From Candidatus Taylorbacteria bacterium RIFCSPHIGHO2_02_FULL_43_32b (GTDB lineage Bacteria; Patescibacteriota; Minisyncoccia; Phycocordibacterales; 2-02-FULL-43-11): a stretch of 55,695 nt of DNA. Position numbers and translations under genes: made by a program. The notes beneath the pieces were generated by a model, which saw only the letters and a program-made list of their open reading frames with translations, did no database searches and was not told where the DNA came from. The stretch lies in the NCBI GenBank assembly GCA_001820955.1, contig MHRK01000047.1:1-55695 (forward strand), in the 5' to 3' direction. Shown here piece after piece: positions 154 to 54,252 of the stretch; position 1 is the first letter of the stretch; each line of letters starts with the position of its first letter.

Positions 154-177
154 CACGCTTTACGCTAAACGCTTTAC
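154..177. repeat. Word-repeat element, family F6 (acgcttt/acgctaaa words)
   Basis: The sequence is cacgctttacgctaaacgctttac. Related copies lie at 10841-10873 and 22761-22794, with a palindromic version at 46309-46386. Confidence 0.5.
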
Positions 178-273
178 CTGCCCGCCAAAGGGAGAGCCGA
201 TGTTCCGTTGCGGTACAACCTTCGGATAGTAATTTTTTCTCAACAGCCGTCCATAACTTTCCGTCCTTTGGCG

Positions 274-900
274 ATGGCGGGCGGGCACTCCGTATCTTAT
301 AATTGCCCAGTGTATACGATTTACTCTACAGAAGGCATAATTCTTCGGGCCTCCAATTCCGGAGAGGATGACAGGTCGTACTTGATTTTTACAAAAGATT
401 TCGGTTTGCTGAAGGCAGAGGGAAGAAGTGTTCGAAAACTGCAATCAAAACTGAGGTATTCGCTTCAGACCTATTCATTTGTCGATGTTTCTTTGGTGAG
501 AGGAAGGGGCAAATGGAAAATCGCCAGTTGCGTTTTGAAGCGAAATTTTTTTTCGGACATGAATGGTCAAGTTGGAGCCAAAATTATTTTAGCCAGAATT
601 TGCGCGCTTGTGCTTAGGTTGGTACAGGGGGAAGAGCGAAATGAGGCTTTATTCAACAATTTATTAAGCGGTATTTTTTTTCTTGTAGACAAAAAACCCG
701 AGGGAAATTTTCTTCGCAATGTCGAATACTTGCTCGCCTTACGCGTTCTTCATTCTCTTGGTTATTTGGGGGAGGAACCTATTTGGAAAGCTTTTACGGA
801 AACGTCCTTGTTCGAAACGGATTTGTTGATGAAAATCGATCTTGCCAAAAGGGAGGTTTTAAGCACAATTAATAGTTCGTTAAGAGAGACCCACCTCTAG
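274..900 (+). CDS. recO: DNA repair protein RecO
   Basis: ORF 208..900. The N-terminal ...YSTEGIILRASNSGEDDRSYLIFTKDFGLLKAEGRSVRKLQSKLR... resembles the RecO OB-fold region. The start is uncertain (ATG 274 or in-frame GTG 310). Confidence 0.75.
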   Translation: MAGGHSVSYNCPVYTIYSTEGIILRASNSGEDDRSYLIFTKDFGLLKAEGRSVRKLQSKLRYSLQTYSFVDVSLVRGRGKWKIASCVLKRNFFSDMNGQVGAKIILARICALVLRLVQGEERNEALFNNLLSGIFFLVDKKPEGNFLRNVEYLLALRVLHSLGYLGEEPIWKAFTETSLFETDLLMKIDLAKREVLSTINSSLRETHL

Positions 901-1020
901 TTGCATGAGAACAAAAAATCAGAAAAACTGATTGATGCCCTATGGTATAATAACCATGCATTTTGCCCGAAGCCCGGTTGGGTTTGGCAATTTGTCGATT
1001 TTTTAATTTTAATTTGACAC

Positions 1021-2967
1021 ATGCCTCCGGATTATTCTAAAAAGGGCGATGAATCAGAGAAAAGTAAGCAAATGAAAAGCCGTCTTGAAGCTTTGGAAGA
1101 CAGTGTATATTCACCGCGTTTCAAAGAAAATAGACAAAACGACGCACCAATAAGAAGCGTTCCATTTGCGGTTAGGAGAGATTGGAATCAAGAAGAAGAA
1201 AAAAAGGAGTCTGTGCCCGAAACCGTGTCTTCAAGAAATACTTACGCAATTTTAAAACAAATACTGATCGGCTCAGTGGTGCTTTTTTTCGCATCTTTGG
1301 GAGTCGCTGCTTACGTGTTCTGGGGAGGCAGTAATATAATTTCTACCAAGAATATTCTAATCAGTCTGAACACTCCATCTTCCGTAGCTGGGGGTGAAAA
1401 ATTGCCGGTTGAGATTTCAATTATTAACCAGAACAATGTGGCTCTCTTGACCGCGGAGGTTTTGGTTGAATACGGAGATGGCGGTAGGGAACCGGAAGAC
1501 CTTTCGAAAGAGTTAAGGCGTTACAGAGAGGCCATTGGGCCGATAGAAATAAACGGCAATATAAACAAAAAGTACGAAGTGGTCTTCTTTGGCGAAGAGG
1601 GGGAATCCAAGGAAATAAAAGTTACGCTTGAGTATCGAGTGAAAGGTTCAAACGCAATTTTCAAGAAAACTGAGACACAACTTGTTTCTCTTTCGTCTGC
1701 TCCGGTGTCGGTGTCAGTTGAAAGTGCGAAAGAGATTAGTGTGGGTGATGAGGCGGTATTTACTGTTAAGCTTTCTGCAAATACTTCTGAAATATTAAAT
1801 AACCCAATGATTACGGCCGATTTTCCATTCGGGTTTCAGTTTACATCGGCCGATCCGAGGCCTGTTTATGGAAATAATGTTTGGGATCTTGGCGATTTAC
1901 AGCCCGGATCGTCGAGGACTATCACTATACGCGGTAAATTTGGGGGCACGGCCGGAGAGGAAAGGTCAATGCGTTTTATTGTCGGTTCGAAAGATCCAAG
2001 AGATGCGAGAAAGATAGGTGTCATTTTCCTGGCCAAAACATTTACCGTCACACTTTCGAGGCCAAATATCGCATTGGATTTGTCTTTGGCGGGGAAACGG
2101 GACATGGAAGTGTCGGTCAAAGCCGGGAACGACATCAGAACAGATGTAATTTTTACCAACAATCTCGACACAAAAATTTCCAATATTGTTGTGGAAGTAA
2201 GGCCGAGAGGAACTATTTTTGACAGAAACTCCGTTAGCGTGACCGGAGGGTTTTATCGTTCAATTGATGGCACTGTAGTTTGGGACCAGTCGACGGCGAA
2301 GTCTTTGGAGGAATTGGGTCCGGGTGAATCGGGTTCCTTAACATTTTCTTTTAGTACTCTTCGCTCTGCCATTGGAGGGAGAACTCCGACTATGACGGTC
2401 GAAGCGACTATCACGGGAAATAAAATGTCTGAGGGCGAGATTGGCCAAATTCGTTCGACTGTCACAAAAACCGTAAAGATTGCCTCTGAAATGTCGGCAT
2501 CGGCAAAAATTTTGTACAGCACCGGACCGTTTTCGAATACAGGTCCTGTGCCTCCCATTGCGGAACAAGAAACAACTTACACAGTGATGCTTGGAGTTAC
2601 GAACAGTACCAATGATTTGTCCGATGTTCAGGTGGTGACCAGTCTGCCGATTTATGCCACCTGGCTCAACAAAATCAGCCCGGAATTTGAAGTTTTGAAA
2701 TACAATCCGGCTGGCGGCGGAATTGTATGGGACGTTAATGATTTGGGTGCCGGAGAAACAAGAGAAGTTTATTTCCAGGTTTCTTTTCTGCCGAGTATCA
2801 ACCAGATCGGATTTAGTCCGGATCTCATAAAAGAGGTTCGTGCCTCAGGTTACGATAGTTTTACTGGTACGACACTCCAAGTTTCTCCGAGCGAGCGAAA
2901 TTATGACATTAGGCTTGTCGATGACTCGGCATATTCGAGCAAGGGCGGACCGGTGAAGAGAAATTAA
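1021..2967 (+). CDS. Membrane-anchored hypothetical protein with a large beta-rich extracytoplasmic region
   Basis: 648-aa ORF with a charged N-terminus, one hydrophobic helix (ILIGSVVLFFASLGVAAYVFW) and a long S/T/V/G-rich region. No recognisable catalytic motif. Confidence 0.7.
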   Translation: MPPDYSKKGDESEKSKQMKSRLEALEDSVYSPRFKENRQNDAPIRSVPFAVRRDWNQEEEKKESVPETVSSRNTYAILKQILIGSVVLFFASLGVAAYVFWGGSNIISTKNILISLNTPSSVAGGEKLPVEISIINQNNVALLTAEVLVEYGDGGREPEDLSKELRRYREAIGPIEINGNINKKYEVVFFGEEGESKEIKVTLEYRVKGSNAIFKKTETQLVSLSSAPVSVSVESAKEISVGDEAVFTVKLSANTSEILNNPMITADFPFGFQFTSADPRPVYGNNVWDLGDLQPGSSRTITIRGKFGGTAGEERSMRFIVGSKDPRDARKIGVIFLAKTFTVTLSRPNIALDLSLAGKRDMEVSVKAGNDIRTDVIFTNNLDTKISNIVVEVRPRGTIFDRNSVSVTGGFYRSIDGTVVWDQSTAKSLEELGPGESGSLTFSFSTLRSAIGGRTPTMTVEATITGNKMSEGEIGQIRSTVTKTVKIASEMSASAKILYSTGPFSNTGPVPPIAEQETTYTVMLGVTNSTNDLSDVQVVTSLPIYATWLNKISPEFEVLKYNPAGGGIVWDVNDLGAGETREVYFQVSFLPSINQIGFSPDLIKEVRASGYDSFTGTTLQVSPSERNYDIRLVDDSAYSSKGGPVKRN

Positions 2968-3117
2968 AAAAGAGGTGAGTATTGAAGCGAATAATTTTAC
3001 ATTTTGATTTTTTAAGTTTACATTAGCGATATGTCACTACCAGAAGATTGGACCCGTCCCGTTAGAAGTTTGGCGAACAAGGCTCTAAAGTAAATTTGTA
3101 AACTGATTTTAAATATC

Positions 3118-10238: not shown

Positions 10239-10314
10239 ATGGAACCTTTGAAAATCAAATTGTGGCCGTATTGGGTGAAAGGAAATTGAAAATGTAAAAA
10301 TCAAAATGGAAAAT

Positions 10315-10428
10315 GACCCGCCTGCTTTGAAGTGACGAGGCGCGATGAAAGTAATAGTTATCGAGTAATGTATAAATGTTATGTTAAGCATTGAGACCAG
10401 AGCCAAAGCATTTCGGGCAGGCAATGTA
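10315..10428 (+). repeat. 114-bp conserved 5' module (promoter-like region plus first 16 codons), copy 1
   Basis: 113/114 identical to the reverse complement of 24186-24299. Contains tataaat just upstream of ATG 10381. Confidence 0.85.
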
Positions 10429-10746
10429 GAATTAAAAATTTCGAAGTGGAGTACTTGGCCATATTGGTTGAGGGGAGGAATGTTGTTTGCTATCGTATTC
10501 ATTCTCTGGCTATGTCTCGGGTCTTATGTTGATAAAATGATCTGTATACCAACGCTAATTGTGGCCTGTCATCAATTTGCTTCTCTTCCTCTAACAAACC
10601 AAATAATTAATCCGCTGATCTGGATGCTCTTCGGTAGTTCTGATTTGATAATATATATTGCGAGTGGAACCGTTTACTTCCTTTGCGGGGCAATTCTCGG
10701 CTGGCTCTATGGCAAAATCAAACCACATAAAATTTTGTATTCTTAA
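10381..10746 (+). CDS. Small multi-TM membrane protein, WPYWLxGG...GWLYGKIK paralog family (P1)
   Basis: MLSIETRAKAFRAGNV..WPYWLRGG..GAILGWLYGKIKPHKILYS. Paralogs are at 22367..22741 and 23922..24233. Confidence 0.6.
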   Translation: MLSIETRAKAFRAGNVELKISKWSTWPYWLRGGMLFAIVFILWLCLGSYVDKMICIPTLIVACHQFASLPLTNQIINPLIWMLFGSSDLIIYIASGTVYFLCGAILGWLYGKIKPHKILYS

Positions 10747-10877
10747 ATTTTTACATTTAACACTGTCATTTTACATTTTGATATTTAAATTTTGCATTTT
10801 AATGCTCTATGGCAAAATTAAAAATCGCAAATTGTCTCAACTAAACGCTTCACGCTAAACGCTTTACGCTTTATCTC

Positions 10878-17170: not shown

Positions 17171-17299
17171 TTAAAAATGTAAAGATCAAAATTCAAAGTG
17201 ACAATGCAAAATTATAAAATGGAATACGTTAAATAGTTTTTCTCCAATTTTTGCATTTTAAACTGTCATTTTACATTTTGATATTTGAATTTTACATTA
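17171..17299. repeat. Family F1 palindromic element (empty, no passenger) between ssb and rpsR
   Basis: Arms are aaaatgtaaagatcaaaattcaaagtgacaatgcaaaatt and aatttttgcattttaaactgtcattttacattttgatatttgaattttacatt. Confidence 0.7.
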
Positions 17300-23848: not shown

Positions 23849-23921
23849 GATAGTTTAGATTACTAAATAATTTAAAATTTAAAGATCAAAATGCAAAATG
23901 ACAATTAAAAATTGAAAAATT

Positions 23922-24233
23922 TCAAGTCGACGAATGCCGGGTCTTGATTTTTTTGATGGACCAACCGATAAAAAGTGCTACCAAGGAAACTGAAAAAAGT
24001 ATGCTCAGGTATACCACATAGTCATTTTTCAAATTAGTGAGGATGATGCCGAATCCTTTCGGACATGGACTATACCCATTTTCTGCCAAGCCTACGCAGG
24101 ATGGCTGAGCCATTAACCATAAATCCAAAATTATACTAATGGTTACCCCTAATATTATCCCTCGCAACCAATATTTTTGTGACTTTACATTGCCTGCCCG
24201 AAATGCTTTGGCTCTGGTCTCAATGCTTAACAT
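23922..24233 (-). CDS. Small membrane protein (P3) sharing its first 16 codons with P1
   Basis: MLSIETRAKAFRAGNV then a divergent body ..YWLRGIILG...LFIGWSIKKIKTRHSST. Confidence 0.55.
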   Translation of the reverse strand: MLSIETRAKAFRAGNVKSQKYWLRGIILGVTISIILDLWLMAQPSCVGLAENGYSPCPKGFGIILTNLKNDYVVYLSILFSVSLVALFIGWSIKKIKTRHSST

Positions 24234-24299
24234 AACATTTATACATTACTCGATAACTATTACTTTCATCGCGCCTCGTCACTTCGAAGCAGGCGGGTC
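24186..24299 (-). repeat. 114-bp conserved 5' module, copy 2 (inverted relative to 10315-10428)
   Basis: Direct comparison shows one mismatch (t/c within gctttgaag vs gcttcgaag). Confidence 0.85.
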
Positions 24300-24323
24300 A
24301 TTTTTCATTTTGATTTTTGCATT

Positions 24324-24689
24324 TTACATTTCTTTTGGTGTACTCATGACCATAAACTCAAGTAGTTTTTCGGTTTCTTTGCCGAAACGATCTTTAGCTT
24401 CAAATTTGATTATATTATAGCCACTCTGGAGTATCAATTTTTCGGAAAACGCCCCAGTTTCGTCAATAAAAATGGGGGAGTCGTTCAATGTTATGGAGTT
24501 GACCCTAAAGGCTTTTCCTCTTACTTCCACTTGAGGTCCGAAGATCTCTGTTTTATCTTGCGGGTAGATGATTTGTATTTCCGGACCAGAGAGATAATCA
24601 CGGCTTTCGTAATATATGTACCAGATCAAAAAACTTCCTGCTACGATCGAGAGGATAATCGAAAATATCATTTTTGCTCCTTTTCTCAT
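24324..24689 (-). CDS. Membrane-anchored hypothetical protein (single N-terminal TM plus a beta-rich domain)
   Basis: 121 aa. ATGA-type 4-nt overlap with the ftsK stop. Confidence 0.6.
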   Translation of the reverse strand: MRKGAKMIFSIILSIVAGSFLIWYIYYESRDYLSGPEIQIIYPQDKTEIFGPQVEVRGKAFRVNSITLNDSPIFIDETGAFSEKLILQSGYNIIKFEAKDRFGKETEKLLEFMVMSTPKEM

Positions 24690-34169: not shown

Positions 34170-34680
34170 AAAAAGGTTATTGATTTGTAGCGGATTTAAG
34201 TGAGCAGGTAGTTCAAAGACGGGTACTTTCTTATGAGCGCGTGTTTGTAATACCAAAAAAGACAGAGAATCTTTCCAAAGGGATGTGCGGGTTAAGTTTG
34301 AGGAGGGGCTTAATGTAACGCAAAATTAAGGAGGGGTTGCGCATAATCCATTTCTTTGTTACTGTTGTCTTTACAGGGCTTCAGAGACTGAAGGTGCCAA
34401 TTTTCAAGGAGCGTTAGCGACTATGAAGATTGAGCATCCCGAACCGCTTTTGTTAAAAAGAGGTGAGGGACAGCTAATGCTTAATTTCCTTCACAGAGGT
34501 CGATTCTCTTAAATTGAGATCGAAGCCTATTATATTATTAGAGTTAGGCGCTAGGCGTTAGGGAGAAGTTTAATTCTAACGTCAGTGACCGTGCCTGCAT
34601 TTAAATGGCGCTAAGATTTAGGGTTGAGGTTTTAGGATTTCCTAGAGCCTAACGCCTAAAACCTAGAGCCTGTTTCTATC

Positions 34681-35172: not shown

Positions 35173-35275
35173 GACCAATATACGAATAATGCGAATCTTG
35201 ACGAATGACTACTAATTCTCAGGTTCGGAGTTATTCGTATACATTAGTTAAGATTAGCATCATTAGTATATTTGT
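35173..35275. repeat. Family F4 palindromic element between rplJ and rplL
   Basis: ccaatatacgaataatgcgaatcttgacgaatgac...attcgtatacattagttaagattagcatcattagtatatttg. Confidence 0.6.
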
Positions 35276-37250: not shown

Positions 37251-37946
37251 ATGTTAGAAACATGGAGTGAAGCCTTGCAAACAGCTTTTGAGGATTTATG
37301 GCTCGGTGTTCTCAATTTTGTTCCCCGATTGGTTATGGCCCTGATCATTTTTTTGGTGGGTTGGGCGATAGGGGCGCTTTTGGATAAGGTAGTTGCCCAA
37401 GTTGTCAGCTCTTTGAAGATTGACGCAGCTCTTCGCCGCGCGAAATTGGATGAACTGCTTCAGAAAGCCGGTTACAATCTCAATTCCGGTATGTTTTTGG
37501 GCGGACTCGTAAAATGGTTTGTCATAGTCGCCTTTCTTATCGCTTCCGTTGATGTCCTTGGTCTTCAGGGGGTCAATGATTTTCTTGTCCGGGTTGTTGA
37601 GTATTTACCGAATGTCATAGTTGCCGCCCTTATAATATTAGTTGCCGCGATTATTGCTGAGATTGTACAGAAAGTTGTGGTTGGGGCGGCCCAAGCCGCC
37701 GCAATCGGCAATGCCAGTTTCGCCGGCTTGGTTGCCAAGTGGTCAATCTGGGTTTTTGCCATCATGGCCGCTTTGCTTCAGCTTCAGATTGTCGCTCCGT
37801 TTATTCAGACATTGTTTACCGGAATTGTTGTGGCTATCGCGCTTGGACTCGGACTATCATTCGGTCTTGGTGGTCAGGAAGCTGCCGCAAGAGCTATTGA
37901 AAAGGTGACGACAGAGATTTCAAACAGGAGGCACCATCAGGGGTAA
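37251..37946 (+). CDS. Conserved-TM-helix-repeat membrane protein (mechanosensitive-channel-related family)
   Basis: ...LNFVPRLVMALIIFLVGWAIGALLDKVV...GGLVKWFVIVAFLIASVDVLGL... is a repeated TM-helix unit. Confidence 0.7.
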   Translation: MLETWSEALQTAFEDLWLGVLNFVPRLVMALIIFLVGWAIGALLDKVVAQVVSSLKIDAALRRAKLDELLQKAGYNLNSGMFLGGLVKWFVIVAFLIASVDVLGLQGVNDFLVRVVEYLPNVIVAALIILVAAIIAEIVQKVVVGAAQAAAIGNASFAGLVAKWSIWVFAIMAALLQLQIVAPFIQTLFTGIVVAIALGLGLSFGLGGQEAAARAIEKVTTEISNRRHHQG

Positions 37947-38260
37947 GAATTATGAATTAGGAATAATGAATTAAGGTAAAGACCAGATTCAAGATTCAGA
38001 ATAAAAGAAAAAGCCGCCGTGTCCGAAAGGTCACGGCGGTTTTCGTTGAACGGGGCGTGCACTTTTCGGTTTCGTCTATCGAGGCGCCCCTTGAAGAACA
38101 TTATACCTGTGGCCGTTGATAGACCACTTAAAATAATTCCGAAAAGTAGACCAAATATAATTGATCGGGAAGTGACGGGTTCCCAGAAATCCCTGGTTAA
38201 GTGGGCGACAGGCAGCCAAATGATAAAACCGATCAGGAAGCAGATAGTTCCAAAGAGCAT
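37937..38260 (-). CDS. Possible 2-TM small membrane protein whose C-terminal tail is encoded by repeat sequence
   Basis: MLFGTICFLIGFIIWL...IIFGLLFGIILSGLSTATGIMFF... The 3' third runs through a terminator hairpin (38011-38044) and the F2 repeat. Weak call. Confidence 0.3.
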   Translation of the reverse strand: MLFGTICFLIGFIIWLPVAHLTRDFWEPVTSRSIIFGLLFGIILSGLSTATGIMFFKGRLDRRNRKVHAPFNENRRDLSDTAAFSFILNLESGLYLNSLFLIHNSYP

Positions 38261-38385
38261 AATTTATAGGGTTGAGACGCAAACTTCTTTTAGGGTGGCA
38301 GGTTATTAAATTAGTGTCAAGAAAAATAAAACGGTTATTTGTCAACGATTTTGGCATAATTCCTTATTCCTAATTCATAATTCAC
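37946..38385. mobile_element. Family F2 inverted repeats bracketing a 107-codon minus-strand ORF
   Basis: gaattatgaattaggaataatgaattaagg (37946-37975) matches the inverse of ccttattcctaattcataattc (38360-38381). Confidence 0.4.
38011..38044 (+). terminator. Intrinsic terminator after 37251..37946
   Basis: Stem gccgccgtg-tccgaaaggt-cacggcggt followed by tttt. Confidence 0.6.
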
Positions 38386-38549
38386 CTTTTTTTCTTGCCA
38401 ACAAAGTGAGGCTTTGCTAGCCAAAAAGCCTTGCGCAGGCCGACGGGCCGAGCAGAGAAATTTGCCAGCAGGCAAATATTCGTGTTTTTGGGGAGCAAAG
38501 TCGAACGATATCCACACCCTATCCACGTCCATTTTCGGCCAAAAGATTT

Positions 38550-38881: not shown

Positions 38882-38988
38882 GCAGAGTTATGAATCAAAG
38901 AATAATGAATCACGGCCGAAAATTGCGAAGCAATTTTCGGAAAACCATAATTCATAATTCATCCTTCATTATTCTGCGCCTAGTGTAG
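38882..38988. repeat. Family F2 palindromic element in the 23S leader
   Basis: gcagagttatgaatcaaagaataatgaatcacggccgaaaattgcgaagcaattttcggaaaaccataattcataattcatccttcattattctgc. Confidence 0.65.
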
Positions 38989-39145: not shown

Positions 39146-39227
39146 AGGCTCTAGGCTTTAGGCTCTAGGCTTTAGGATGGAAGAGAATTCTTTCCTAGTG
39201 CCTAGTGCCTATCTACCTAGTGCCTAA
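39146..39227. repeat. Family F5 palindromic element flanking the 23S 5' side
   Basis: aggctctaggctttaggctctaggctttagg...cctagtgcctagtgcctatctacctagtgcctaa. A counterpart lies at 46131-46213. Confidence 0.65.
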
Positions 39228-39251: not shown

Positions 39252-39452
39252 ACGTTCGAACTGCGAGTGGTCGCGGTGCGAACGGTGGTTAAAATATTTC
39301 CTAACAGGAAATAAGAGCATATGGTGGATGCCTTGGCTCGAGAGAGGCGATGAAGGACGTAGCGTGGCTGCGATAAGCTTCGGGGAGGTGCCTAGCAACC
39401 TTTGATCCGGAGATGTCCGAATGGGGAAACCCTGCGGCGTAAAACGCCGTAA

Positions 39453-39644
39453 CCGAAGCATCACATGGAATGTGATGAAAAATGCAAAATGTAAATATCA
39501 AAATTAAAAATGACAGTTAAAAATGTAAAAATGAAAGAAATTGGAAAATGTTTTTGTTTTCAATTTTAAAAATTTGCATTGTCATTTTACACTTTGATTT
39601 TTTAATTTTAAATTTAAAGCATCGCGTTTCGCGCGATGCTTCGG
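39453..39644 (+). other. 23S intervening sequence 1 (helix 9 region), containing a family F1 palindrome
   Basis: Closing stem ccgaagcatc...gatgcttcgg. Modules are catcacatggaatgtgatg, an F1 palindrome, then gcatcgcgtttcgcgcgatgc. Confidence 0.7.
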
Positions 39645-39745
39645 AGCGTACCCTGGGAAGTAAAACATTTCAGTACCAGGAGGAGTAGAAACTAATCAGC
39701 ATTCCGTAAGTAGCGGCGAGCGAAAGCGGAGAAGCCCAAACCCGG

Positions 39746-39906
39746 CCGCATCTCATTGCATTCGATGCGGAATTCTTAATTTTTAAATTTTGTAATTTTT
39801 TAAATAATTTTCTAATTTCTGAATGTTTACACATTTGGTCATTGGGATTTGTTTAGAAATTAAAAATTAGAAATTAGAAATTCCACTCGAGCGTAGCGAG
39901 ATGTGG
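39746..39906 (+). other. 23S intervening sequence 2 (domain I), containing a family F3 element
   Basis: Closing stem ccgcatctc...gagatgtgg. The interior, ~120 nt (aatttttaaat...ttagaaattaaaaattagaaattagaaattcc), is closely similar to 44332-44442. Confidence 0.65.
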
Positions 39907-40221
39907 CAGGGGGTTGTAAGGTAACGGCGTCGGTTTTATATCGAGAAGAGTTACAAAATTGTTTGTTAATTGAATCTGCTGGAAAGCGGAGCCCAAGAAG
40001 GTGATAGCCCTGTAAGTGAAAATAAACAATCTCTTTTGCCGTTATTCTTGAGTACTTCGAGACACGAATAGCTCGGAGGAATCTGCCGGAACTAACCGGT
40101 AAGGCTAAATACTCATCGAGACCGATAGTGAACTAGTACCGCGAGGGAAAGGTGAAAAGCAGTCCGTTGAGGACGATGAAATAGACCTGAAACCATATTG
40201 CTTACAAAGAGTTGTAGCGGG

Positions 40222-40368
40222 CGCATCACATGGGATGTGATGCGGATATGAATTATGAATAAGGAATTATGAATTATGCCGGGAAAATTGCGTAGCAATT
40301 TTCCCCAACCATTATTCATAATTCATACTTCTTAATTCATGCTTGAGCATCGCGTTTCGCGTGATGCG
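40222..40368 (+). other. 23S intervening sequence 3 (helix 25 region), containing a family F2 palindrome
   Basis: gcatcacatgggatgtgatgc, then an F2 palindrome (gaattatgaataaggaattatgaattatg...), then gcatcgcgtttcgcgtgatgc. Confidence 0.7.
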
Positions 40369-40994
40369 TCCGTGGCAGCGTGCCTATTGAAGAATGAGCC
40401 AACGAGTTGATGCATTCGGCGAGGCGAACTCCCGTTAAAGGAGGAAGCCGTAGGGAAACCGAGTGTTAATAGCGCGAATAGTCTAATGCATCAGACCCGA
40501 AGCCAAGTGAGCTTGCCTTGAGCAGGATGAACCCTCGAGAAATCGAGGGGAAGGTCCGAACGCTAGAGCTGTGCAATACTCTGCGATGACTTGAGGTAAG
40601 AAGTGATAAGCTAATCGAACTTGGTAATAGCTGGTTCTCTCCGAAATAGCTTTTGGGCTAGCGTCGAGTGATCCTTTAAGGGGTAGAGCACTGGATGGTC
40701 TGGACAGGTCGAAAGACCGCTAGACCAATCAAACTCCGAATACTTAGAGTTATAACTCGGCAGTTACACCGTGGGGGCGAAGCTTCACTGGTGAAAAGGG
40801 AAACAGCCCGGATCTCCAAATAAGGTCCCTAAATTTATGCTAAGTGCATCACAAGGTGGTGAAATTTCTCAAACAATGAGGATGTCGGCTTAGAAGCAGC
40901 CATCATTCAAAGAAAGCGTAACAGCTCACTCATCGAGAGATTTTGCGCCGAAGATAATCGGGGCTAAGCATAGTACCGAATTTGAGGGCACAGG

Positions 40995-41131
40995 AAGCAT
41001 CACATTGCATGTGATGCGAATTATGCAGTATGAATTATGAATTAAGGTTTTCGGAAAATCGCTTTGCGATTTTCCTCCATAATACATAATTCATTATTCA
41101 TAATTCGGCATCGTGCGTAGCGCGATGCTTC
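40995..41131 (+). other. 23S intervening sequence 4 (helix 45 region), containing a family F2 palindrome
   Basis: Closing stem gaagcatc...gatgcttc. Modules are catcacattgcatgtgatg, an F2 palindrome, then gcatcgtgcgtagcgcgatgc. Confidence 0.7.
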
Positions 41132-41673
41132 TCGTGCGGTAGGAGAGTTTTCGCATCTGCTGTGAAGGTGAAGGGGTGACCCACACTGGAGCGTTGCGAA
41201 GTAAGAATGTTGGCACAAGTAACCACATTAGGGGTGAGAAACCCCTACGCCGAAATACCAAGGTTTCCTTGGCAATGATTGTCAGCCAAGGGTTAGTCGG
41301 TCCTAAGGGAATGGCGAAAGCCGCACCCGATGGATATACGGTTAATATTCCGTAACTTTCGTGCGAAACGATGAGATGACGAAGTGTAGTATGCTCTGCG
41401 CATTATTGGATTTGACGTTTGACGCGTCAGGACGGCTTTTAGGTAAGTCCGGGAGCCTGCCTTTAATGGCGATTCCAAACGCGGCAAGAATCCCAAGGGC
41501 AACCGAGGGAAATAGGGCAAAGCACGCTTCCGAGAAAAGTCTCTAAGTTTATTCGCATGAAATCCGTACCGCAAACCGACACAGGTGGTAACGTCGAGAA
41601 GACGAAGGCGAACGAGTGAAGGTTCTCCAAGGAACTCGGCAAAAAATCAGCCGTAACTTCGGAATAAGGCTTT

Positions 41674-41985
41674 CCAGCACCACTTTTTGGTTTTAAAATA
41701 TAGTTGTGTATTACGTCTATTTACAAAAACACACTGTAACCAAAGAGATTTATATTGGTAAAACAAATAATCTCAAGCGACGTTTGAGCGAACATAATAA
41801 CGGTGAACAAAAATCTACACATCGGAAAGATGGCGAATGGAAATTTGTTTATCTGGAGGTATATCGCTCAAAAAAAGATGCAGATGATCGTGAGATGAAG
41901 CTTAAGCATCACGGTCGTGCGAAACAAGAGCTATATAAAAGAATCAGCTCGTCGCTTGAAGATTAAAACCAAAAAGTGGTGCTGG
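41674..41985 (+). other. Stem-bounded 23S insertion (helix 63 region) carrying a GIY-YIG ORF
   Basis: A perfect 22-bp closing stem ccagcaccactttttggtttta / taaaaccaaaaagtggtgctgg encloses ORF 41706..41966. Confidence 0.7.
41706..41966 (+). CDS. GIY-YIG domain nuclease (small YhbQ/UPF0213-like)
   Basis: GTG start. YYVYLQKHTVTKEIYIGKTNNLKRRLSEHNNG...WKFVYLEVYRSKKDADDREMKLK. Confidence 0.75.
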   Translation: MYYVYLQKHTVTKEIYIGKTNNLKRRLSEHNNGEQKSTHRKDGEWKFVYLEVYRSKKDADDREMKLKHHGRAKQELYKRISSSLED

Positions 41986-42103
41986 ATGCAACGAAAGACT
42001 GCTTGGCAACTGTTTATCAAAAACACAGCTCCCTGCGAACTCGTAAGAGGATGTATAGGGGGTGACACTTGACCAATGCCAGAAGGTCAAACGACGGCGT
42101 TGC

Positions 42104-42250
42104 GTGCATCACATGGAATGTGATGCGGGATGAATTATGAATAAAGAATTATGAATTATGGAGGAAAATCGCAAAGCGATTTTCCGAAAACCCTAATTAC
42201 TAATTCATACTACATAATTTAATTCTCACATCGCGCTTCGCGTGATGCAC
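42104..42250 (+). other. 23S intervening sequence 5 (domain IV), containing a family F2 palindrome
   Basis: Closing stem gtgcatc...gatgcac. Modules are catcacatggaatgtgatg, an F2 palindrome, then catcgcgcttcgcgtgatg. Confidence 0.65.
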
Positions 42251-42319
42251 GTGGTGACTGTCGTAAGCCCTGGTGAATGTCGGCCTTAACTATAAGGGTC
42301 CTAAGGTAGCGCAATTCCT

Positions 42320-43381
42320 AAAAGACTGGGACCATCCAAAAGGGATGGAAAACTTGGCTGTATGCGGGAAACTCCGGTAGTATCTCGAGACTACTTTGTC
42401 GGGTATAATATGCCGATGAGTAAAAATGTTTCGAGTGGCTCCGATTTATGTCGGAGGCCGGACAATCCGCAGGAAACGTATGAAGTTAGTAATTTCTATT
42501 ATTCAGGATTCTTTGCAGCAGAAATGTCCTGTTCGATCATTAAAGCAACAAATCATCATCCAAAAGGCTATTACTATGCCGTTGATATAACGGTGTCGAA
42601 TGCGGATGTAAAGTTGCTGAAGAAGGTGAATCGGGCAGTCATGAAAGGCTCCGGGATTATAAGCCCCGTAAAAGGAGCTTTCAATCTTTCGGCGCGCGGA
42701 AAAGAAAAGGTTCGTATTGTCCTGGATTTTCTTCAGAAGTATCCGATTATTGTTGGCGATCTTGCTAAAAATCGGATAGCGATCTTAAGGAAGGCGCTTG
42801 CGTATCTTGATAATCATCAAGGGCACGTAACGCATGAAGAAAAAACAAAAATCATGGATACAATGCGGCGTAATCTCCGAATGCTAAAAGAAAAAGGAGT
42901 AATTGAAAAATCATTTGACGTCGAACCGGTGAATACTGATGCTGTTGGCTATTTCCTTTCAGGAGTAGCGGATGGTGAGGGTTCATTTGGGTCTAAAATG
43001 TCCGGTGATCGTAAGGAACCGTATTTTTTTGTCGCGATGAAAGATCAGAAAATTATTGATCTGTTCCGAAAATTTATAAATTACGGAAATGTTCGGGGGC
43101 GAAAAGATAAAGTGTTCCATTGCGAAATAAATAAACGGGATAAGCTAAAAGAAATTTGTACCTTATTTCTTTTGCGATATCCTTTGCATAACGCGCGACA
43201 AAAGGCGCGGTTGCGAGAACTTCAGCGGATCCTCAACGACTATACGCCAAGCCCCGCAATGGCGGGGATGATATAGTCTGAACTGCATGGCGACATGCAG
43301 AGTTCGGCTCGCGTCGAACCGCTTCGATTAATTTTAATCGGAGTCAAAATCTTGCACCCGCAAGGTTTCAGTAACAGAGTG
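42320..43381 (+). mobile_element. Group I intron with a LAGLIDADG ORF, inserted in ..GCGAAAUUCCU|UGUCGGGUAAG.. (about E. coli 1943)
   Basis: The 5' exon ends in U (42319) and the intron ends in G (43381). An S-element-like gatatagtc lies at 43269-43277, and the exon sequence is restored on removal. Confidence 0.8.
42362..43276 (+). CDS. Double-motif LAGLIDADG homing endonuclease
   Basis: Motifs YYSGFFAAEMSCSI and VGYFLSGVADGEGSFG. The start is uncertain (the internal ATG 42410 is possible). Confidence 0.85.
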   Translation: MRETPVVSRDYFVGYNMPMSKNVSSGSDLCRRPDNPQETYEVSNFYYSGFFAAEMSCSIIKATNHHPKGYYYAVDITVSNADVKLLKKVNRAVMKGSGIISPVKGAFNLSARGKEKVRIVLDFLQKYPIIVGDLAKNRIAILRKALAYLDNHQGHVTHEEKTKIMDTMRRNLRMLKEKGVIEKSFDVEPVNTDAVGYFLSGVADGEGSFGSKMSGDRKEPYFFVAMKDQKIIDLFRKFINYGNVRGRKDKVFHCEINKRDKLKEICTLFLLRYPLHNARQKARLRELQRILNDYTPSPAMAGMI

Positions 43382-43698
43382 TGTCGGGTAAGTTCCGACG
43401 CGTTGAATAGTGTCATGTCTGAGCAACTGTCTCGGAGAACAGCTCGGTGAAAATACAGTACCGGTGAAGATGCCGGTTACCTGCAGCTAGACGAAAAGAC
43501 CCTGGAAGCTTTACTACAACTTGGTATTGAGTATATGTTTTTTATGCGTAGCGTAGACGTTAGGCTTTGAAGTGTCCCTTTCGGGGGGCATGGAGCCGCC
43601 AATGAAACAGCGTTCTTAAAAAATATATATTCTAACCTGTGCGGCAAAAACGTACGGGAACAGTATCTGGCGGGTAGTTTTGGTGGGGCGCTATCCTT

Positions 43699-44657
43699 GA
43701 GAACGTGAATTTTTTCGTGTTCTCAAACTATGGCGCCTCCGGCAAGGTTAATCTCTTGCGAAAAAAATAAAGTTAGAGGGCGTCATAAATTCAAAATGCA
43801 AAAATCAAAATGAAAAATGACCCCAGTAGCAGAGCAAATCTCGCTACGGGGCAGGCAATTGCAAAATGAAAAAATGACGGGTAAATCAGCGATATGCTGG
43901 GAAATCTGGTGTATCCGCAGCTACTTGGTGTACAATAGGAATGTTATAAATATCTAAATTTTTAATAACATGTCCGAAGAAATGCCAAGTGAAAATGCTA
44001 GCGGTGCAGAAAACCAGCAGGAATCTACTAACGAGCTTATTGAACGGTTTAGAAACCAACCAATTGAACAATATAAAATCGAGTTAATCAGAAAAGCCGA
44101 TGTAATTGAAAATAGGATTAGACATGTTAAAGACCTAATTCAAGAGTACGACGGAACTCATGGCGATATGAGTAGTATTTTTACGGGTCGATTGGGTGCA
44201 ATAGGAAGAAAACTTGATGAAATGGAGGAAGCCTTGGACTTTAATTTGAAGTCAGTAGCATTCATGAAAAGTCAGGAAAAGTAGTGGATATTCCTCAGAG
44301 ACCACCAGCTGATGCCTGTGAATACAGGAATGATTAATTTTTGAATTTTTCAATTTTTAAATAATGTTTCAATTTCTTAATGTTTAAGACATTGGGTTAT
44401 TGGGGTTTATTTAGAAATTAAAAATTAGAAATTAAGAATTCCGATGTACTCATCGGTTAATGTATGGTCCGAACTCTACCCTTCGATAAGGAGGGCTTGC
44501 CCGACTCAGGGCAAGTAGCGATATAGAGAGACAGGCAGAAATGTCCTGTCTGTAAACAAGATTTGTGCTTTCGTTTGCGCATGTATTCGTAGTCATTCGT
44601 TATGATTCGTATACATTCGTAGATTGGCACTTAATTTTGTTGTACACAACAAAATTG
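43699..44657 (+). mobile_element. 0.96-kb composite insertion in the 23S helix 81 loop region (class unresolved)
   Basis: Flanked by ..ggggcgctatcctt| and |tctaaaaagtaacgaaggag. Contains F1 (43786-43880), F3 (44332-44442) and F4 (44578-44624) repeats and a 104-codon ORF. U at -1 and a terminal G are possible. Confidence 0.6.
43970..44284 (+). CDS. Hypothetical helical/acidic 104-aa protein encoded inside the 23S insertion
   Basis: ORF track only. No nuclease, maturase or RT motif recognised. Confidence 0.35.
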   Translation: MSEEMPSENASGAENQQESTNELIERFRNQPIEQYKIELIRKADVIENRIRHVKDLIQEYDGTHGDMSSIFTGRLGAIGRKLDEMEEALDFNLKSVAFMKSQEK

Positions 44658-44899
44658 TCTAAAAAGTAACGAAGGAGTCTATTAAGGTTCCCTAGGCGCG
44701 AATGGAAACCGTGCCGATAGTGCAATGGCAAAAGGGAGCTTGACTGCGAGGGGGACATCCCAAGCAGGTGCGAAAGCAGAGCATAGTGAACCGATGGCCC
44801 GCGTTAGACGCGGCCAGAGATTATCGGACAAAAGCTACTCCAGGGATAACAGGCTAGTTCCGCCTAAGAGTTCATATCGACGGCGGAGTTCGGCACCTC

Positions 44900-45287
44900 A
44901 AATCGGGGCGCCATACCAGAAATGGTATTAGCTACTTCGACATAACACACAGGAGTGAACCCTGTTATGTTGTTGAAAAATATTGGCTTATAACGGTGGA
45001 ATCCTACGAATAAATTTTTTGCAAAATTTAGGCGAGGACAATCCCGTGGGAACCCAGCACCATTTATCGTAAGACGGTGAATGAAGTGGTGTTGGCGGCA
45101 GTGCTATTTATGTGACTATTTCCAGAAAGTAAATAAATGGTGCTGGACCCGTAGAGACTTTCTCGATGACCCAAATCGAGACTAGTCCGGAATAAATTTC
45201 CGGGCTAACACGCCAACTCCTCATCCTCCAAAAGAGGGAAGGAAGAAGATATAGTCCATACAATTGGAAACAATTGCTAAAAGATAC
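44900..45287 (+). mobile_element. ORF-less group-I-like intron in ..GGCACCUC|GAUGUCGG.. (about E. coli 2500, peptidyl-transferase centre)
   Basis: aagatatagtcc (S-element-like) at 45247-45258, followed by a caattg-gaaa-caattg hairpin. It shares ggct(t)ataacggtggaatc with the next intron. The canonical U(-1)/terminal-G junction cannot be placed. Confidence 0.65.
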
Positions 45288-45319
45288 GATGTCGGCTTAT
45301 CACATCCCGGGGCTGTAGA

Positions 45320-45353
<34 letters not shown>

Positions 45354-45442
45354 TGCTACATGAGCTGGGTTCAGACCGTCGCGAGACAGGTTGGTCTCCT
45401 ATCTGCTGCAGGCGTTGATTCTTGAGGAGATTCGTTTCTAGT

Positions 45443-45890
45443 AAGTAATTGCTACTTTATGGAGTAATCCATAATGACAATTTGGCTAATAACGGTGGAA
45501 TCTTAAGGTTTTTGGTCTGTTGATAACCATATCGAACACGGTCCGGTGATTATGGTACAATTTACTTGAGGACCAGAAATATTTAAGACAATACCGTGGG
45601 AAGCATTAGGAAATTAAAAATGCAAATATCAAAATCAAAAAATACTGATTAAATTTTGCGAAAGCAAAATTTACAATCTGAATAGAATTTGTCCGCCTTC
45701 GGCGGACGCTTCAATTTTACATTTTGATTTTTAAACTTTACATTTTCTTTTGCCCCGTAACGACTGGAGTCCGCCTTATCGGCGGACGAAGATAGTGGTG
45801 GCGAACGATTTCGCGCCATTATAATATGCCAACGACCAATTAGATTGGTCGAAGATATAGTCTACACACGTAGTGATACGTGAATATGTG
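45443..45890 (+). mobile_element. ORF-less group-I-like intron splitting the sarcin-ricin loop (..CUAGU|ACGAGAGGACC..)
   Basis: The 5' exon ends in U (45442) and the intron ends in G (45890). It has aagatatagtc at 45852-45862 and carries a family F1 palindrome (45611-45746) in a peripheral region. Confidence 0.7.
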
Positions 45891-46130
45891 ACGAGAGGAC
45901 CGAAACGAACTGACCTCTGGTGTACCTGCTGTCGTGCCAACGGCACCGCAGGGCAGCTATGTCGGGAACGGATAACCGCTGAAAGCATCTAAGTGGGAAA
46001 CCGCCTCCAAGATTAGGAATCGTTTAGACCCGTGGAAGACTACCACGTTGATAGGCTTTAGGTGTACGCACAGTAATGTGTTGAGCCGTGAAGTACTAAT
46101 CCGTCGATCTTGTTAGGAAATATTGGAGCC

Positions 46131-46213
46131 ACAGGCTCTAGGTAGTAGAGCTCTAGGCTCTAGGTTGGAAGAAATTCTTTCCTAGCGTCTAGTGCCTAAA
46201 GTCTAGTGCCTAA
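46131..46213. repeat. Family F5 palindromic element flanking the 23S 3' side
   Basis: acaggctctaggtagtagagctctaggctctagg...cctagcgtctagtgcctaaagtctagtgcctaa. Confidence 0.65.
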
Positions 46214-46308: not shown

Positions 46309-46386
46309 CAGCGTAAAGCGTATAGCGTTTAGTTTGGAAGATTTTCCGGACTTAACGCTGTACGCTATTCGCTAAACGCTTTAAAG
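46309..46386. repeat. Family F6 palindromic element
   Basis: gcagcgtaaagcgtatagcgtttag...cttaacgctgtacgctattcgctaaacgctttaaag. Confidence 0.6.
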
Positions 46387-47094: not shown

Positions 47095-47126
47095 TAAAGT
47101 AGTGAACTCAATTTTTCTTTCCGGGG

Positions 47127-49611: not shown

Positions 49612-49690
49612 GGGAATGAATTATGAATTAGGGTGAATGCAAAATGCAAAAATCAAAATGGAAAATGACAATGCAAAATGCAAAAATTTT
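49612..49690. repeat. Adjacent single arms of families F2 and F1 after the SEDS gene
   Basis: gaatgaattatgaattagggtgaatgcaaaatgcaaaaatcaaaatggaaaatgacaatgcaaaatgcaaaaatttt. Confidence 0.55.
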
Positions 49691-52602: not shown

Positions 52603-52708
52603 TAATACAAATATACGAATGTTACTAATCTTTCTAATGTCAACGAATTCTCAAAATTCGGGTTCTATTCGTATACATTCGTTATGATTAGTGTCATTAG
52701 TATATTGG
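52603..52708. repeat. Family F4 palindromic element in a divergent intergenic region
   Basis: caaatatacgaatgttactaatc...attcgtatacattcgttatgattagtgtcattagtatattgg. Same architecture as 35173-35275. Confidence 0.6.
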
Positions 52709-52797
52709 TCAAGTTATTATAAAAACTATACCATGCCAACGTGTTTTTTCCACGGAGCTAGATTTAACAGGATTTTTGTTGTACCATACTTCCGTCT

Positions 52798-54147
52798 ATG
52801 ACAGGCCTAAACAAACAAGAACCGCTCATACTTTTTTTGGGTGATGTTGTTATTTTTGCCATAACGTTGTGGCTGGCCCTTTTTTTGCGTTACGGGTCGG
52901 TACCTCCAATTGACCGTATACAGAGCCATTTTTTGGCTTTTTTGCCTCTCGTAGCAATATGGCTTGTTGTTTTTTTTATCGCCGGTCTATATGAAAGGCA
53001 TACTTTGATTTTAAGGAGCCGTTTGCCAAATATTGTCATAGGGGCACAAATAGCCAACGGAATTGTTGCCGTGGCTTTTTTCTACTTCGCCACATATCTT
53101 ACAATCGCTCCGAAAACTGTGCTGTTTATTTATGTCGCGTTGGCGGCCGTCGCCGCAATTTTGTGGAGGCTTTATGGATATCCCATAATCGGAAGCCGCA
53201 GTAAGCAAAGAGCCTTCTTGATTGGCCAAGGCGAAGAGATTCGTGAATTGGAGACTGAAGTTAACCAAAACGATTTTTATGCCATGAAATTCGTTTCGTC
53301 TATTGATGTGGATAAAATTGCTGGCTTGGATATCAGAAAAGACCTTATTGAGGAAGTTTACGCTGATGAAGTTTCGATTATTGCTCTCGACACAAGAAAC
53401 CCAAAAATAAATCCGCTTCAGCCTCATTTATACAACCTTGTTTTTTCTAACGTGAAGTTTATCAGCCTGCACAGGCTTTACGAAGAAATATTCAAGAGGG
53501 TGCCGCTTTCCCTTGTCGGTTATGAATGGTTCTTGGAAAATGTTTCCAATCGTTCCAAGCCTGTTTACGACGCTTTGAAAAGAATAATTGACGTTGCGAT
53601 TTCATTGCCTCTTCTAGTTGTGCCTCTCCTTTCATTTCCTTTTGTGTACATCGCGGTAAAAATTGAAGATGGCGGACCGGTTTTTATTTTTCAAACCAGG
53701 GTAGGCGAAAATAACCGGCTGGTCAAATTTGTGAAGTTCAGAACAATGCTATTTAGTGAGGACGGTGAATGGCAGGGAAGAGGAAAGGAAAATAAGGTGA
53801 CAGCAGTCGGCGCATTTCTCCGAAAAACTCGTCTTGATGAATTTCCTCAGTTGTGGAACGTTCTCATCGGGGACGCGTCTCTTGTTGGCCCGCGTCCGGA
53901 GTTTCCGGAGCCCGTTCGGCGTTATTCAGAAGAACTGCCATATTACAATGTTCGACATATGATAAAGCCTGGCTTGTCAGGTTGGGCACAGATATACGGA
54001 GAGCATCCTCACCACGGGGTGGATGTAACGAAGACTGCCAATAAATTGGCGTATGATTTGTACTACATCAATAACAGAAGTCTGTTCTTGGATTTGGAGA
54101 TCGCACTGAAGACAGTTAGGATTTTGCTGACGTTTAAGGGAAAATAA
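52798..54147 (+). CDS. Polyprenyl-phosphate sugar-1-phosphate transferase (WbaP/bacterial sugar transferase family)
   Basis: N-terminal TM helices. C-terminal LRKTRLDEFPQLWNVLIGDASLVGPRPE...IKPGLSGWAQI. Confidence 0.9.
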   Translation: MTGLNKQEPLILFLGDVVIFAITLWLALFLRYGSVPPIDRIQSHFLAFLPLVAIWLVVFFIAGLYERHTLILRSRLPNIVIGAQIANGIVAVAFFYFATYLTIAPKTVLFIYVALAAVAAILWRLYGYPIIGSRSKQRAFLIGQGEEIRELETEVNQNDFYAMKFVSSIDVDKIAGLDIRKDLIEEVYADEVSIIALDTRNPKINPLQPHLYNLVFSNVKFISLHRLYEEIFKRVPLSLVGYEWFLENVSNRSKPVYDALKRIIDVAISLPLLVVPLLSFPFVYIAVKIEDGGPVFIFQTRVGENNRLVKFVKFRTMLFSEDGEWQGRGKENKVTAVGAFLRKTRLDEFPQLWNVLIGDASLVGPRPEFPEPVRRYSEELPYYNVRHMIKPGLSGWAQIYGEHPHHGVDVTKTANKLAYDLYYINNRSLFLDLEIALKTVRILLTFKGK

Positions 54148-54150
54148 GAT

Positions 54151-54252
54151 TAATGTAAAATGTAAATATCAAAATTCAAAATGACAATGCTAAATTATTA
54201 AATTTTACATTTTTAATTGTAATTTTGCATTTTGATTTTTTAATTTTGAATT
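54151..54252. repeat. Family F1 palindromic element (empty)
   Basis: taatgtaaaatgtaaatatcaaaattcaaaatgacaatgc...attttacatttttaattgtaattttgcattttgattttttaattttgaatt. Confidence 0.7.

Follow-up and report, generated by a model that had tools for sequence, protein, structure and literature searches.

Heptamer-armed hairpins at 23S rRNA helix tips, in gene gaps and around PF05635 genes of a Candidatus Taylorbacteria genome: probable families of intervening-sequence-type elements

Helices 9, 25 and 45 are the classic sites at which bacterial 23S rRNA genes harbor intervening sequences (IVS), which are excised by RNase III (PMC4990558). The helix-45 IVS of Coxiella burnetii carries an S23p (PF05635) gene, a 28-bp terminal stem and tandem GACAGAT heptamers (2-3 copies of the heptamer, depending on the strain), is cut by RNase III at the first heptamer and, as a sporadically distributed sequence, is regarded as selfish (PMC4990558). 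Within the Candidate Phyla Radiation (CPR), Tsurumaki et al. (2024) described 23S genes with short (<200 bp) non-intron inserts that lack open reading frames (ORFs) and lie at IVS sites, as well as PF05635 ORFs in some rRNA inserts (PMC11270868). In intergenic DNA, heptamers are reported to be the most over-represented repeat unit of bacteria (PMC4679880, PMC4692102), with 70-75 convergent inverted GGGAATC pairs in Xanthomonas and TAACTGA in Beggiatoaceae and cyanobacteria (PMC4692102, PMC4679880). Here we describe how these themes meet in a 55,695-nt window (the whole of contig MHRK01000047.1, C47 in our numbering) of Candidatus Taylorbacteria bacterium RIFCSPHIGHO2_02_FULL_43_32b, which contains a 23S rRNA gene, a tRNA-Thr gene (46396-46470) and a 5S rRNA gene, together with palindromes built of reiterated short words that an earlier note had sorted into six families (F1 to F6).

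We consider it probable that these word palindromes are several families of IVS-type hairpin elements, of which few copies carry a gene and many are gene-less miniatures, and which undergo fast gain and loss. New here is a single genome in which three settings share arm families, i.e. 23S helix tips, gene gaps and five gene-bearing cassettes. The source genome (G000) comprises 1.01 Mb in 63 contigs (43% G+C, 91% complete), and no 16S rRNA gene was found in this 91%-complete assembly. Period-7 arrays were detected by a lag-autocorrelation scan over the whole genome with locally shuffled DNA as control, coding versus non-coding and gene-gap counts were based on crude ORF calls, and the boundaries of the 23S inserts were set by BLAST against the E. 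coli 23S gene. For comparison we used 40 genomes of the same order (41 with G000), in which G001-G004 are congeners and G027 belongs to another family.

Direct inspection found the described words in every interval listed by the earlier note, and the palindromic grammar that it had seen as common to all families holds in a sharper form: each arm consists of some 4-6 degenerate heptamers in tandem (AAAATNN in F1, GAATTAT in F2, AAATTAG in F3, AGGCNCT in F5, ACGCTTT in F6), with the exception of F4 (ACGAAT), whose period is about 10 and not 7. All six families are present, and the lag scan added at least one more (F7, GAATCNN) on other contigs. Genome-wide, 60-91 arrays were recovered at lag 7, as compared to 0-9 at the remaining lags between 4 and 12, 5-16 at lag 13 and 11-23 at lag 14 (2x7), while locally shuffled DNA yielded at most 2 arrays at any lag, so that the lag-7 excess lies far above what AT-rich composition produces. 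Among the commonest 13-mers of the genome are ATGAATTATGAAT (27 copies) and AAAAATCAAAATG (25 copies), which are F1 and F2 words. Three quarters of the arrays (75%) fall in the approximately 17% of DNA outside ORF calls, and they are denser by about threefold in same-strand gaps (0.58 per kb) than in convergent (0.21) or divergent (0.15) ones. Being iterated in tandem, specific for lag 7 and largely non-coding, they match the description of heptamer simple-sequence repeats in these respects; unit number varies among F2 arrays, and F1 is a fixed order of differing words that is conserved across species.

The partners of these arrays are predominantly inverted (42 inverted versus 8 direct within 900 nt), with a smaller inverted excess among distant pairs (17 versus 6 at 200-900 nt). 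Complete hairpins do fold (z = -3.1 to -8.4), as the earlier note had supposed for all intervals; about one third of these are lone arms that have no partner and do not fold. A single arm is not self-complementary (minimum free energy, MFE, about 0; z >= 0), and folding arises only in arm pairs. The lone arms lie at 154-177, 2995-3024, 10199-10238, 10841-10873, 14765-14795 and 49612-49690 (z about 0 or above), and the intervals 22761-22794 and 44578-44624 were likewise found to be partnerless in the partner scan. The statement that most intergenic gaps hold such an element was too strong, since, of the 36 gaps that measure 30 nt or more, 18 contain one (with the rRNA operon set aside, 14 of 32), and a strict array occurs genome-wide in about 8% of tandem gaps. 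Recurrence beyond the window, in turn, was borne out: searches with F1 and F2 patterns recovered copies on other contigs of G000 and in relatives, with reversed-pattern controls near zero.

The 23S rRNA gene (coordinates of its inserts in Table 1) harbors arms of F1, F2 and F3 in five inserts, as had been claimed: at helix 9/10 (F1), E. coli position 275/286 (F3), helix 25 (F2), helix 45 (F2) and helix 68 (F2). In alignments with E. coli and the congeners, those of helices 9, 25 and 45, the IVS sites proper, are clean insertions at helix tips, and the inserts of helices 9, 25, 45 and 68 fold into extended stem-loops (MFE -48 to -67 kcal/mol, z -6.6 to -8.3). Their build is nested. The heptamer arms are enclosed by a shell made up of a pair of mini-hairpins (CATCACA-TGGAA-TGTGATG; CATCGCG-TTTCG-CGCGATG), which is confined to the rRNA gene and found nowhere else in the genome; this arrangement is clear in helices 9, 25, 45 and 68, and the flank of the 275/286 insert is a more diverged, shell-like version of it. 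In the helix 9/10 insert the order is shell hairpin CATCACATGGAATGTGATG, F1 arms (39478-39608) and shell hairpin CATCGCGTTTCGCGCGATG, and the F2 copies of the rRNA gene share a tip hairpin GGAAAATTGC-GNN-GCAATTTTCC (with the loop GTA in helix 25, GGAAAATTGC-GTA-GCAATTTTCC). Arms also occur in two further inserts. The 961-nt insert holds an F1 arm with a GC hairpin (43786-43880), an F3 hairpin (44332-44442, z = -5.8), a single F4 arm (44578-44624) and an ORF of 104 aa (43970-44284) with no Pfam match, and an F1 hairpin is nested in one of three group-I-intron-like inserts. All three score below the Rfam gathering score (the F1-bearing one matches Intron_gpI at 45428-45883, E = 0.0036), and another of them carries a LAGLIDADG ORF.

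The link to the gene family named after 23S IVS emerged from a whole-genome search, which recovered five PF05635 (23S-rRNA-intervening-sequence protein) genes above the Pfam cut-off (e.g. 14177-14488 of contig G000:C19, within a cassette at 14090-14558, E = 1e-34). All five lie outside rRNA genes and each is enclosed by inverted heptamer arms of a different family (F7, F2, F5, F1 and F3-like). In the relatives, 16 of 40 genomes possess a PF05635 gene, and for 20 of the 27 testable genes the flanking inverted arms beat all shuffles, with a best period of exactly 7 in 16 of the 20 and with many different words. Furthermore, a maximum-likelihood tree of the PF05635 domain groups the copies by arm word across host genomes: CTAGGC (G000, G003, G037), GAATTAT (G000, G019), TAGTGAG (G007, G039) and AAAGTTN (G013, G026, G030) form clades (support of 98 for G000+G003 and for G000+G019), and one AT-rich clade contains the F1 and F3-like copies. 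It follows from this grouping that gene and arms travel together as element lineages. A PF05635 gene is present in 8 of the 10 genomes with F2 arrays and in 9 of the 31 without (these genomes being related and thus not independent).

F1 is a true family of copies. Its arm cores number 44 in G000, 61 in G003, 39 in G004 and 43 in G027, as compared to 0-1 in G001 and G002 and 0-1 in reversed-pattern controls, and the copies of three species can be aligned over about 45 nt per arm. In nearly every copy the two arms belong to distinct subtypes (alpha, AATGYAAAATGYAAATATC; beta, AATTWAAAATTAAAAAATC) that differ by G versus T at two columns (in 20 and 21 of 23 copies, respectively), and arms of the same copy agree at variable columns less often (0.31) than permuted pairs do (0.43 +/- 0.02). 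It follows that each hairpin derives as a whole from a founder with unlike arms and is itself the unit of copying, and that it is not a product of local fold-back or of free assortment of arms; the stem thereby also acquires a purine-purine mismatch about every seven pairs. With terminal inverted repeats, a size of about 100-130 nt, no coding content and many copies (arm cores at 39-61 per genome in three congeners correspond to about 20-30 hairpins each), F1 shows several traits of transposable elements of the miniature inverted-repeat type (MITEs). The orientation of its subtypes relative to transcription was 9:2 when scored by eye in G000, and 17:11 in an automated count over three genomes that included many ambiguous copies and mis-called strands.

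Gain and loss of the elements is evident among close relatives (85-99% identity in the flanks within the 23S gene). G002 has nothing inserted at helix 9, and its helix 25 bears a plain 46-nt hairpin that contains no heptamers, i.e. presence is sporadic, as in IVS. G003 has F1 arms at helix 9 (in a different shell) and at helix 25 (F2 in G000), together with one additional insert close to E. coli position 648, and the helix 45 insert of G013 carries F1 arms as well. G007 has the shell of the G000 type at four sites with other heptamer words, among which AATAACC-type words at E. coli 275/286 gave, elsewhere in its genome, degenerate-pattern matches only at noise level. The repertoire of arms in the rRNA gene mirrors the dispersed one (F1 and F2 in G000, F1 and almost no F2 in G003, neither in G002). 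Between the sugar-transferase and epimerase genes, an F1 hairpin is present in G000 and G004, a hairpin of other words in G003 and none in G001 and G002. The inverted arms around rpsL were found in G000 alone among 28 genomes with scorable flanks, from which we conclude that the bracketing of ordinary genes is species-specific. Across the order, F2-type arrays occur in 10 of the 41 genomes. Outside it, GAATNAN arrays (often as inverted pairs) were located at more than 120 loci in many phyla, in one case between successive ribosomal-protein genes. A BLAST clustering for a common neighbour gene among 120 of these loci returned only ORFs that read through the repeats, and a phmmer search of them with one PF05635 query gave no match, though a gene of this kind is clearly present in one or more of them (L045).

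We propose that each family would consist of one full copy enclosing a gene of the PF05635 (Avd-like four-helix-bundle) family, many gene-less miniatures and some solitary arms. Copies would spread and vanish fast, persisting where the transcript tolerates an added stem-loop, that is in same-strand gene gaps, beside rRNA and tRNA genes, in a loop at the periphery of a group I intron and at the tips of 23S helices 9, 25, 45 and 68, with the rRNA-specific shell of mini-hairpins joining the arms to the 23S helix. If the cases of Coxiella, Salmonella and Leptospira are a guide, the transcribed arms may form long imperfect duplexes that are cut by RNase III (a gene for which is present in G000, at G000:C50:4639-5028), and the 23S inserts may be removed in the absence of religation; in mRNAs, by extension of the same analogy, cut arms could create processing or stability sites in operon transcripts. 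Each PF05635 paralog would be dedicated to one arm family, namely its own. The lack of G.U excess, the frequency of solitary arms and the poor conservation of sites lead us to favour a largely selfish element, tolerated at permissive sites, over a fine-tuned role in RNA.

Several observations weigh against this interpretation. Roughly one interval in three is a lone arm unable to fold. No cognate transposase was found for the heptamer elements, whose gene-bearing copies carry only PF05635, a family with no known transposase activity, and target-site duplication could not be substantiated for F1 (direct repeats of 2 nt or more at the presumed ends in 27% of copies versus 15% of shuffled pairings, which is not significant, the ends being poorly defined). 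Among the stem mismatches, which are mostly transversions, G.U does not exceed A.C, which gives no hint of selection specific to RNA pairing and leaves the comparison uninformative as to a role at the RNA level. The match between PF05635 clades and arm words could come from plain co-inheritance and not from recognition. Finally, the 91%-complete assembly holds no gene-bearing member of F4 or F6, and G027, with its 43 F1 cores, yielded no PF05635 gene at E <= 1e-8.

The strongest competing explanation, which we nevertheless judge unlikely, is that the host retains the hairpins as RNA elements for purposes of its own, be it as stems for intercistronic processing or stability, as terminators or as rRNA processing stems, with the word families serving as orthogonal pairing partners. 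It would suit the preference of arrays for same-strand gaps, the retention of a hairpin with different words in the orthologous gap of G003, the two F5 copies flanking the 23S gene, the F6 hairpin preceding tRNA-Thr and the conservation of the shell architecture across families of the order; yet the same sites are devoid of hairpins in the congeners G001 and G002, the rpsL arms are unique to G000, neither G.U pairs nor compensatory changes are enriched, the mismatches are fixed by descent and not by selection for pairing, and a third of the intervals are unpaired arms. With regard to termination, the stems are mostly A.U-rich with mismatches and a GC hairpin exists in some F1 copies only, so that the combination of GC-rich stem and T run is not found in them. 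Hairpins that resemble canonical bidirectional terminators (a GC stem between an A run and a T run) stand at other gene ends (32278-32312, 35822-35871, 20997-21041), and the heptamer hairpins are thus not the general terminators of this genome.

We assign a still lower probability to ordinary heptamer simple-sequence repeats, arising by replication slippage in AT-rich spacers, with a DNA-level role or none and with incidental hairpins. The reported over-representation of heptamers in intergenic DNA (PMC4679880, PMC4692102), the variable unit number of F2, the long perfect heptamer arrays of other phyla and the commonness of single arms would all agree with slippage, as would the 127 other period-7 arrays found in 876 kb around the 120 unrelated GAATNAN loci (versus at most 17 at other lags, lag 14 aside). 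Against it speak the inverted bias of partners, the fixed order of non-identical F1 words across three species with distinct arm subtypes (by which expansion purely in place is already contradicted for F1) and the bracketing of PF05635 genes, which is far too regular (5/5 in G000, 20/27 in relatives).

Mobilisation of repetitive extragenic palindromic (REP) sequences and bacterial interspersed mosaic elements (BIMEs) by a REP-associated tyrosine transposase (RAYT, a Y1 HUH transposase) is in our view very improbable. What the earlier note had called REP/BIME- or MITE-like behavior is real insofar as the elements are dispersed, exist in dozens of copies and occupy sites that are filled or empty among congeners; membership in the REP/RAYT system is unsupported. 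Y1_Tnp proteins are encoded in the genome and the two-subtype pairing of arms recalls BIME Y/Z, but the RAYT-like gene (G000:C53:7853-8206) is flanked by different inverted arrays, AAGAAATGGGGACA(GGCACCATT), the other Y1 gene (on G000:C55) has no heptamer arrays nearby, no Y1 gene was seen flanked by F1-F7 arms, and a single arm is no palindrome and hence no imperfectly palindromic unit of 20-40 nt. Chance matches due to AT-rich composition, which the A/T-richness of F1 and F3 might suggest, are refuted by the 43% G+C of the genome, the near-empty shuffles, the composition of F5 and F6 (which are not AT-rich) and the recurrence of the families in relatives over reversed-pattern controls near zero.

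As regards the protein, the one solved relative of the G000 PF05635 protein is Xanthomonas XCC0516 (2GSC, five chains in a single entry), and bAvd is a pentamer; one subunit per heptamer would then fit arms of about five units. On this basis we tentatively raise the idea, with rather low expectation, that each PF05635 four-helix-bundle paralog might recognise one heptamer word, its own, in a sequence-specific way, making up five orthogonal protein-repeat pairs, in which the protein would attach to arms of the matching family (as DNA or RNA) and promote copying of the element or processing by RNase III. Were this true, such a system would have left its footprint in the excess of heptamer repeats that has long been noted in bacteria.

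Table 1. Coordinates of the 23S rRNA gene, its arm-bearing inserts and the dispersed elements of the window (strand: dot where none is assigned; z, folding score).
Feature	Coordinates	Strand	Remarks
23S rRNA gene	39301..46107	+	6.8 kb; ten insertions totalling ~3.9 kb; Rfam LSU match in two pieces
Insert, helix 9/10 (E. coli 130/178)	39433..39645	+	IVS-like; z = -6.7
Insert, E. coli 275/286	39744..39959	+	Shell-like flank and F3 hairpin (39770-39895); z = -4.7
Insert, helix 25 (E. coli 535/548)	40219..40371	+	IVS-like; shell, F2 arms (40244-40346), tip; z = -8.3
Insert, helix 45 (E. coli 1159/1181)	40988..41137	+	IVS-like; shell, F2 arms (41016-41108), tip; z = -6.6
Insert, helix 68 tip (E. 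coli 1860/1886)	42102..42264	+	Shell, F2 arms (42128-42230), tip; z = -8.3
961-nt insert, E. coli 2259/2261	43698..44658	+	No Rfam match; absent from G002
Group-I-intron-like insert, E. coli 2654	45444..45890	+	Nested F1 hairpin 45611-45746; absent from G002
F2 hairpin with rRNA-type tip	38882..38988	+	Upstream of 23S; z = -6.9
F5 hairpin	39146..39227	+	~70 nt upstream of 23S 5' end; near-copy of 46131-46213; z = -5.5
F5 hairpin	46131..46213	+	~20 nt downstream of 23S 3' end; brackets 23S together with 39146-39227; z = -4.0
F6 hairpin	46309..46386	+	Immediately upstream of tRNA-Thr; z = -8.4
Gene-less F1 hairpin	17171..17299	.	Between ssb (16689-17150) and next same-strand gene; z = -3.1
Gene-less F1 hairpin	54151..54252	.	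Between sugar-transferase and epimerase genes; z = -3.3
F4 hairpin (ACGAAT words, period ~10)	35173..35275	.	z = -3.6
F4 hairpin	52603..52708	.	Divergent gene gap; z = -4.3
F5 element	34543..34672	.	3' half is a hairpin; z = -3.4
Inverted F1 arms	10285..10800	.	10285-10317 and 10746-10800 around small membrane-protein gene 10381-10746 (no Pfam match)
Inverted F1 arms	23869..24332	.	23869-23917 and 24298-24332 around small-protein gene 23922-24233 (minus); partner score 24
Inverted F2 arms	37946..38388	.	37946-37975 and 38352-38388 around small ORF 37937-38260 (minus); score 25-26, exceeding all shuffles
Single F6 array	10841..10873	+	Ends 4 nt before start codon 10878; z = 0.0
F2 arm then F1 arm, each single	49612..49690	+	No partner; z = -0.04

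The window contains some further features of note. Instead of folding into two local hairpins, the F5 copies on either side of the 23S gene could form a long-range processing stem, in which the left arm of the upstream copy is paired with the right arm of the downstream one. The F1-bracketed genes for small membrane proteins (10381-10746, 23922-24233 on the minus strand and, on another contig, G000:C7:3894-4240) are paralogous, two of them start with MLSIETRAKAFRAGNV, and they gave no Pfam matches. The lone F6 arrays at 10841-10873 and 154-177 end 4 and about 30 nt, respectively, before start codons, which recalls the TAACTGA repeats directly upstream of starts in Beggiatoaceae (PMC4679880). 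Two other inserts of the 23S gene contain ORFs with a Pfam match, namely the helix 63 insert (41671-42005; an 86-aa GIY-YIG ORF at 41706-41966, E = 1.5e-18) and the insert at E. coli 1940/41 (42320-43381; a LAGLIDADG ORF at 42362-43276, with a weak group I intron match). Inverted repeats of 20 nt (CCCCGTAGTGAAATTTGGCCT..., CCCCGTCAGAAAAATTGAGT...) lie at 38550-38680, where they enclose 89 nt upstream of the 23S gene, and at 46940-47125, around the 5S gene; similar pairs exist on C23, C38 and C16, and these repeats may serve as processing stems or represent one more structured repeat.

Other repeats coexist with the heptamer hairpins in the genome. The Y1 (HUH) transposase gene of C53 has its inverted AAGAAATGGGGACA(GGCACCATT) arrays at L142:1300-1452 and 2154-2290, in the layout of a REPtron, and other contigs contain scattered AATGGTGCCCATT palindromes related to this system, which differs from that of the heptamer hairpins. 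There is also a MITE-like family with 12 or more copies of about 160 bp (e.g., outside the window, G000:C38:17043-17201, C31:6865-7023 and C7:9580-9738), which end in inverted repeats of 27 nt (ATACCATCTCTAATTAACGCTTTCACA); no 13-mers of the genome are commoner than the words of this family. Near-perfect palindromes ACTCATTATAA..AGCTATAGCT..TTATAATGAGT were found in the window (33432-33469, 34131-34170) and at G000:C63:5830-6000 and C12:8693-8877, and perfect palindromes (GTGGTTTAATAATGTTACT|AGTAACATTATTAAACCAC), present in 8 or more copies, make up a second family. An inverted repeat with 55-nt arms at 4546-4657 adjoins a retroelement locus, and its centre, GAGGCATATC|GATATGTCGAGG, belongs to a dispersed palindrome family (ATATCGAGATATG, 23 copies; also at G000:C14:6636-6679, C50:3657-3700 and C55:4275-4318). 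This motif also fills the helix 68 insert of G007 (L236:2985-3083).

The reading of the word palindromes as IVS-type elements joins three puzzles that have so far been separate, i.e. the origin of 23S IVS, the function of PF05635/S23p and the excess of intergenic heptamers, and it accounts for much of what has been termed uncharacterised short insertions in CPR rRNA genes. The main text of the survey of CPR rRNA inserts has neither 'repeat' nor 'palindrom' in it and draws no link to intergenic copies (PMC11270868); among the papers searched, we found none joining CPR or Patescibacteria with REP or MITE terms, and none describing a link between IVS, PF05635 and heptamer repeats.

When set beside the known systems, the elements resemble REP/BIME, Correia elements and Rickettsia palindromic elements in being small, non-coding, palindromic, dispersed, polymorphic and co-transcribed with their neighbours, and the paired subtypes of F1 arms resemble BIME Y/Z pairs. 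Unlike REP/BIME and MITEs, their arms are internally periodic, and their candidate partner is a four-helix bundle and not a transposase (no RAYT or insertion-sequence partner with the same ends was found). With GGGAATC, TAACTGA and the short tandemly repeated repetitive (STRR) sequences, which are intergenic heptamer repeats of heterocystous cyanobacteria, they share the 7-nt unit and the intergenic location; those, however, are described as near-perfect repeats of single words, whereas G000 has several degenerate families, a fixed word order in F1, copies in rRNA and a bracketed gene family.

A more precise identity is given by the build of 23S IVS and PF05635 cassettes, which the elements share. 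The gene-less IVS of Salmonella, Yersinia, Campylobacter and Alphaproteobacteria likewise occupy helices 9, 25 and 45, measure 100-200 nt, form an extended stem-loop and vary among close relatives; they have not been reported as heptamer-built or as genome-wide repeat families, and G000 adds the helix 68 and E. coli 275/286 sites. The Coxiella IVS (and the ORF-bearing IVS of Leptospira) share with the elements described here a stem-loop that replaces a 23S helix tip and tandem heptamers in the arm beside a PF05635/S23p gene, and the PF05635 cassettes of G000 have the same build as the Coxiella IVS. In contrast to the latter, the 23S copies of G000 are gene-less, number at least five per 23S gene and possess an extra shell of two mini-hairpins, while the gene-bearing copies reside outside rRNA, at least five word families coexist, and dozens of gene-less copies are lodged between protein genes.

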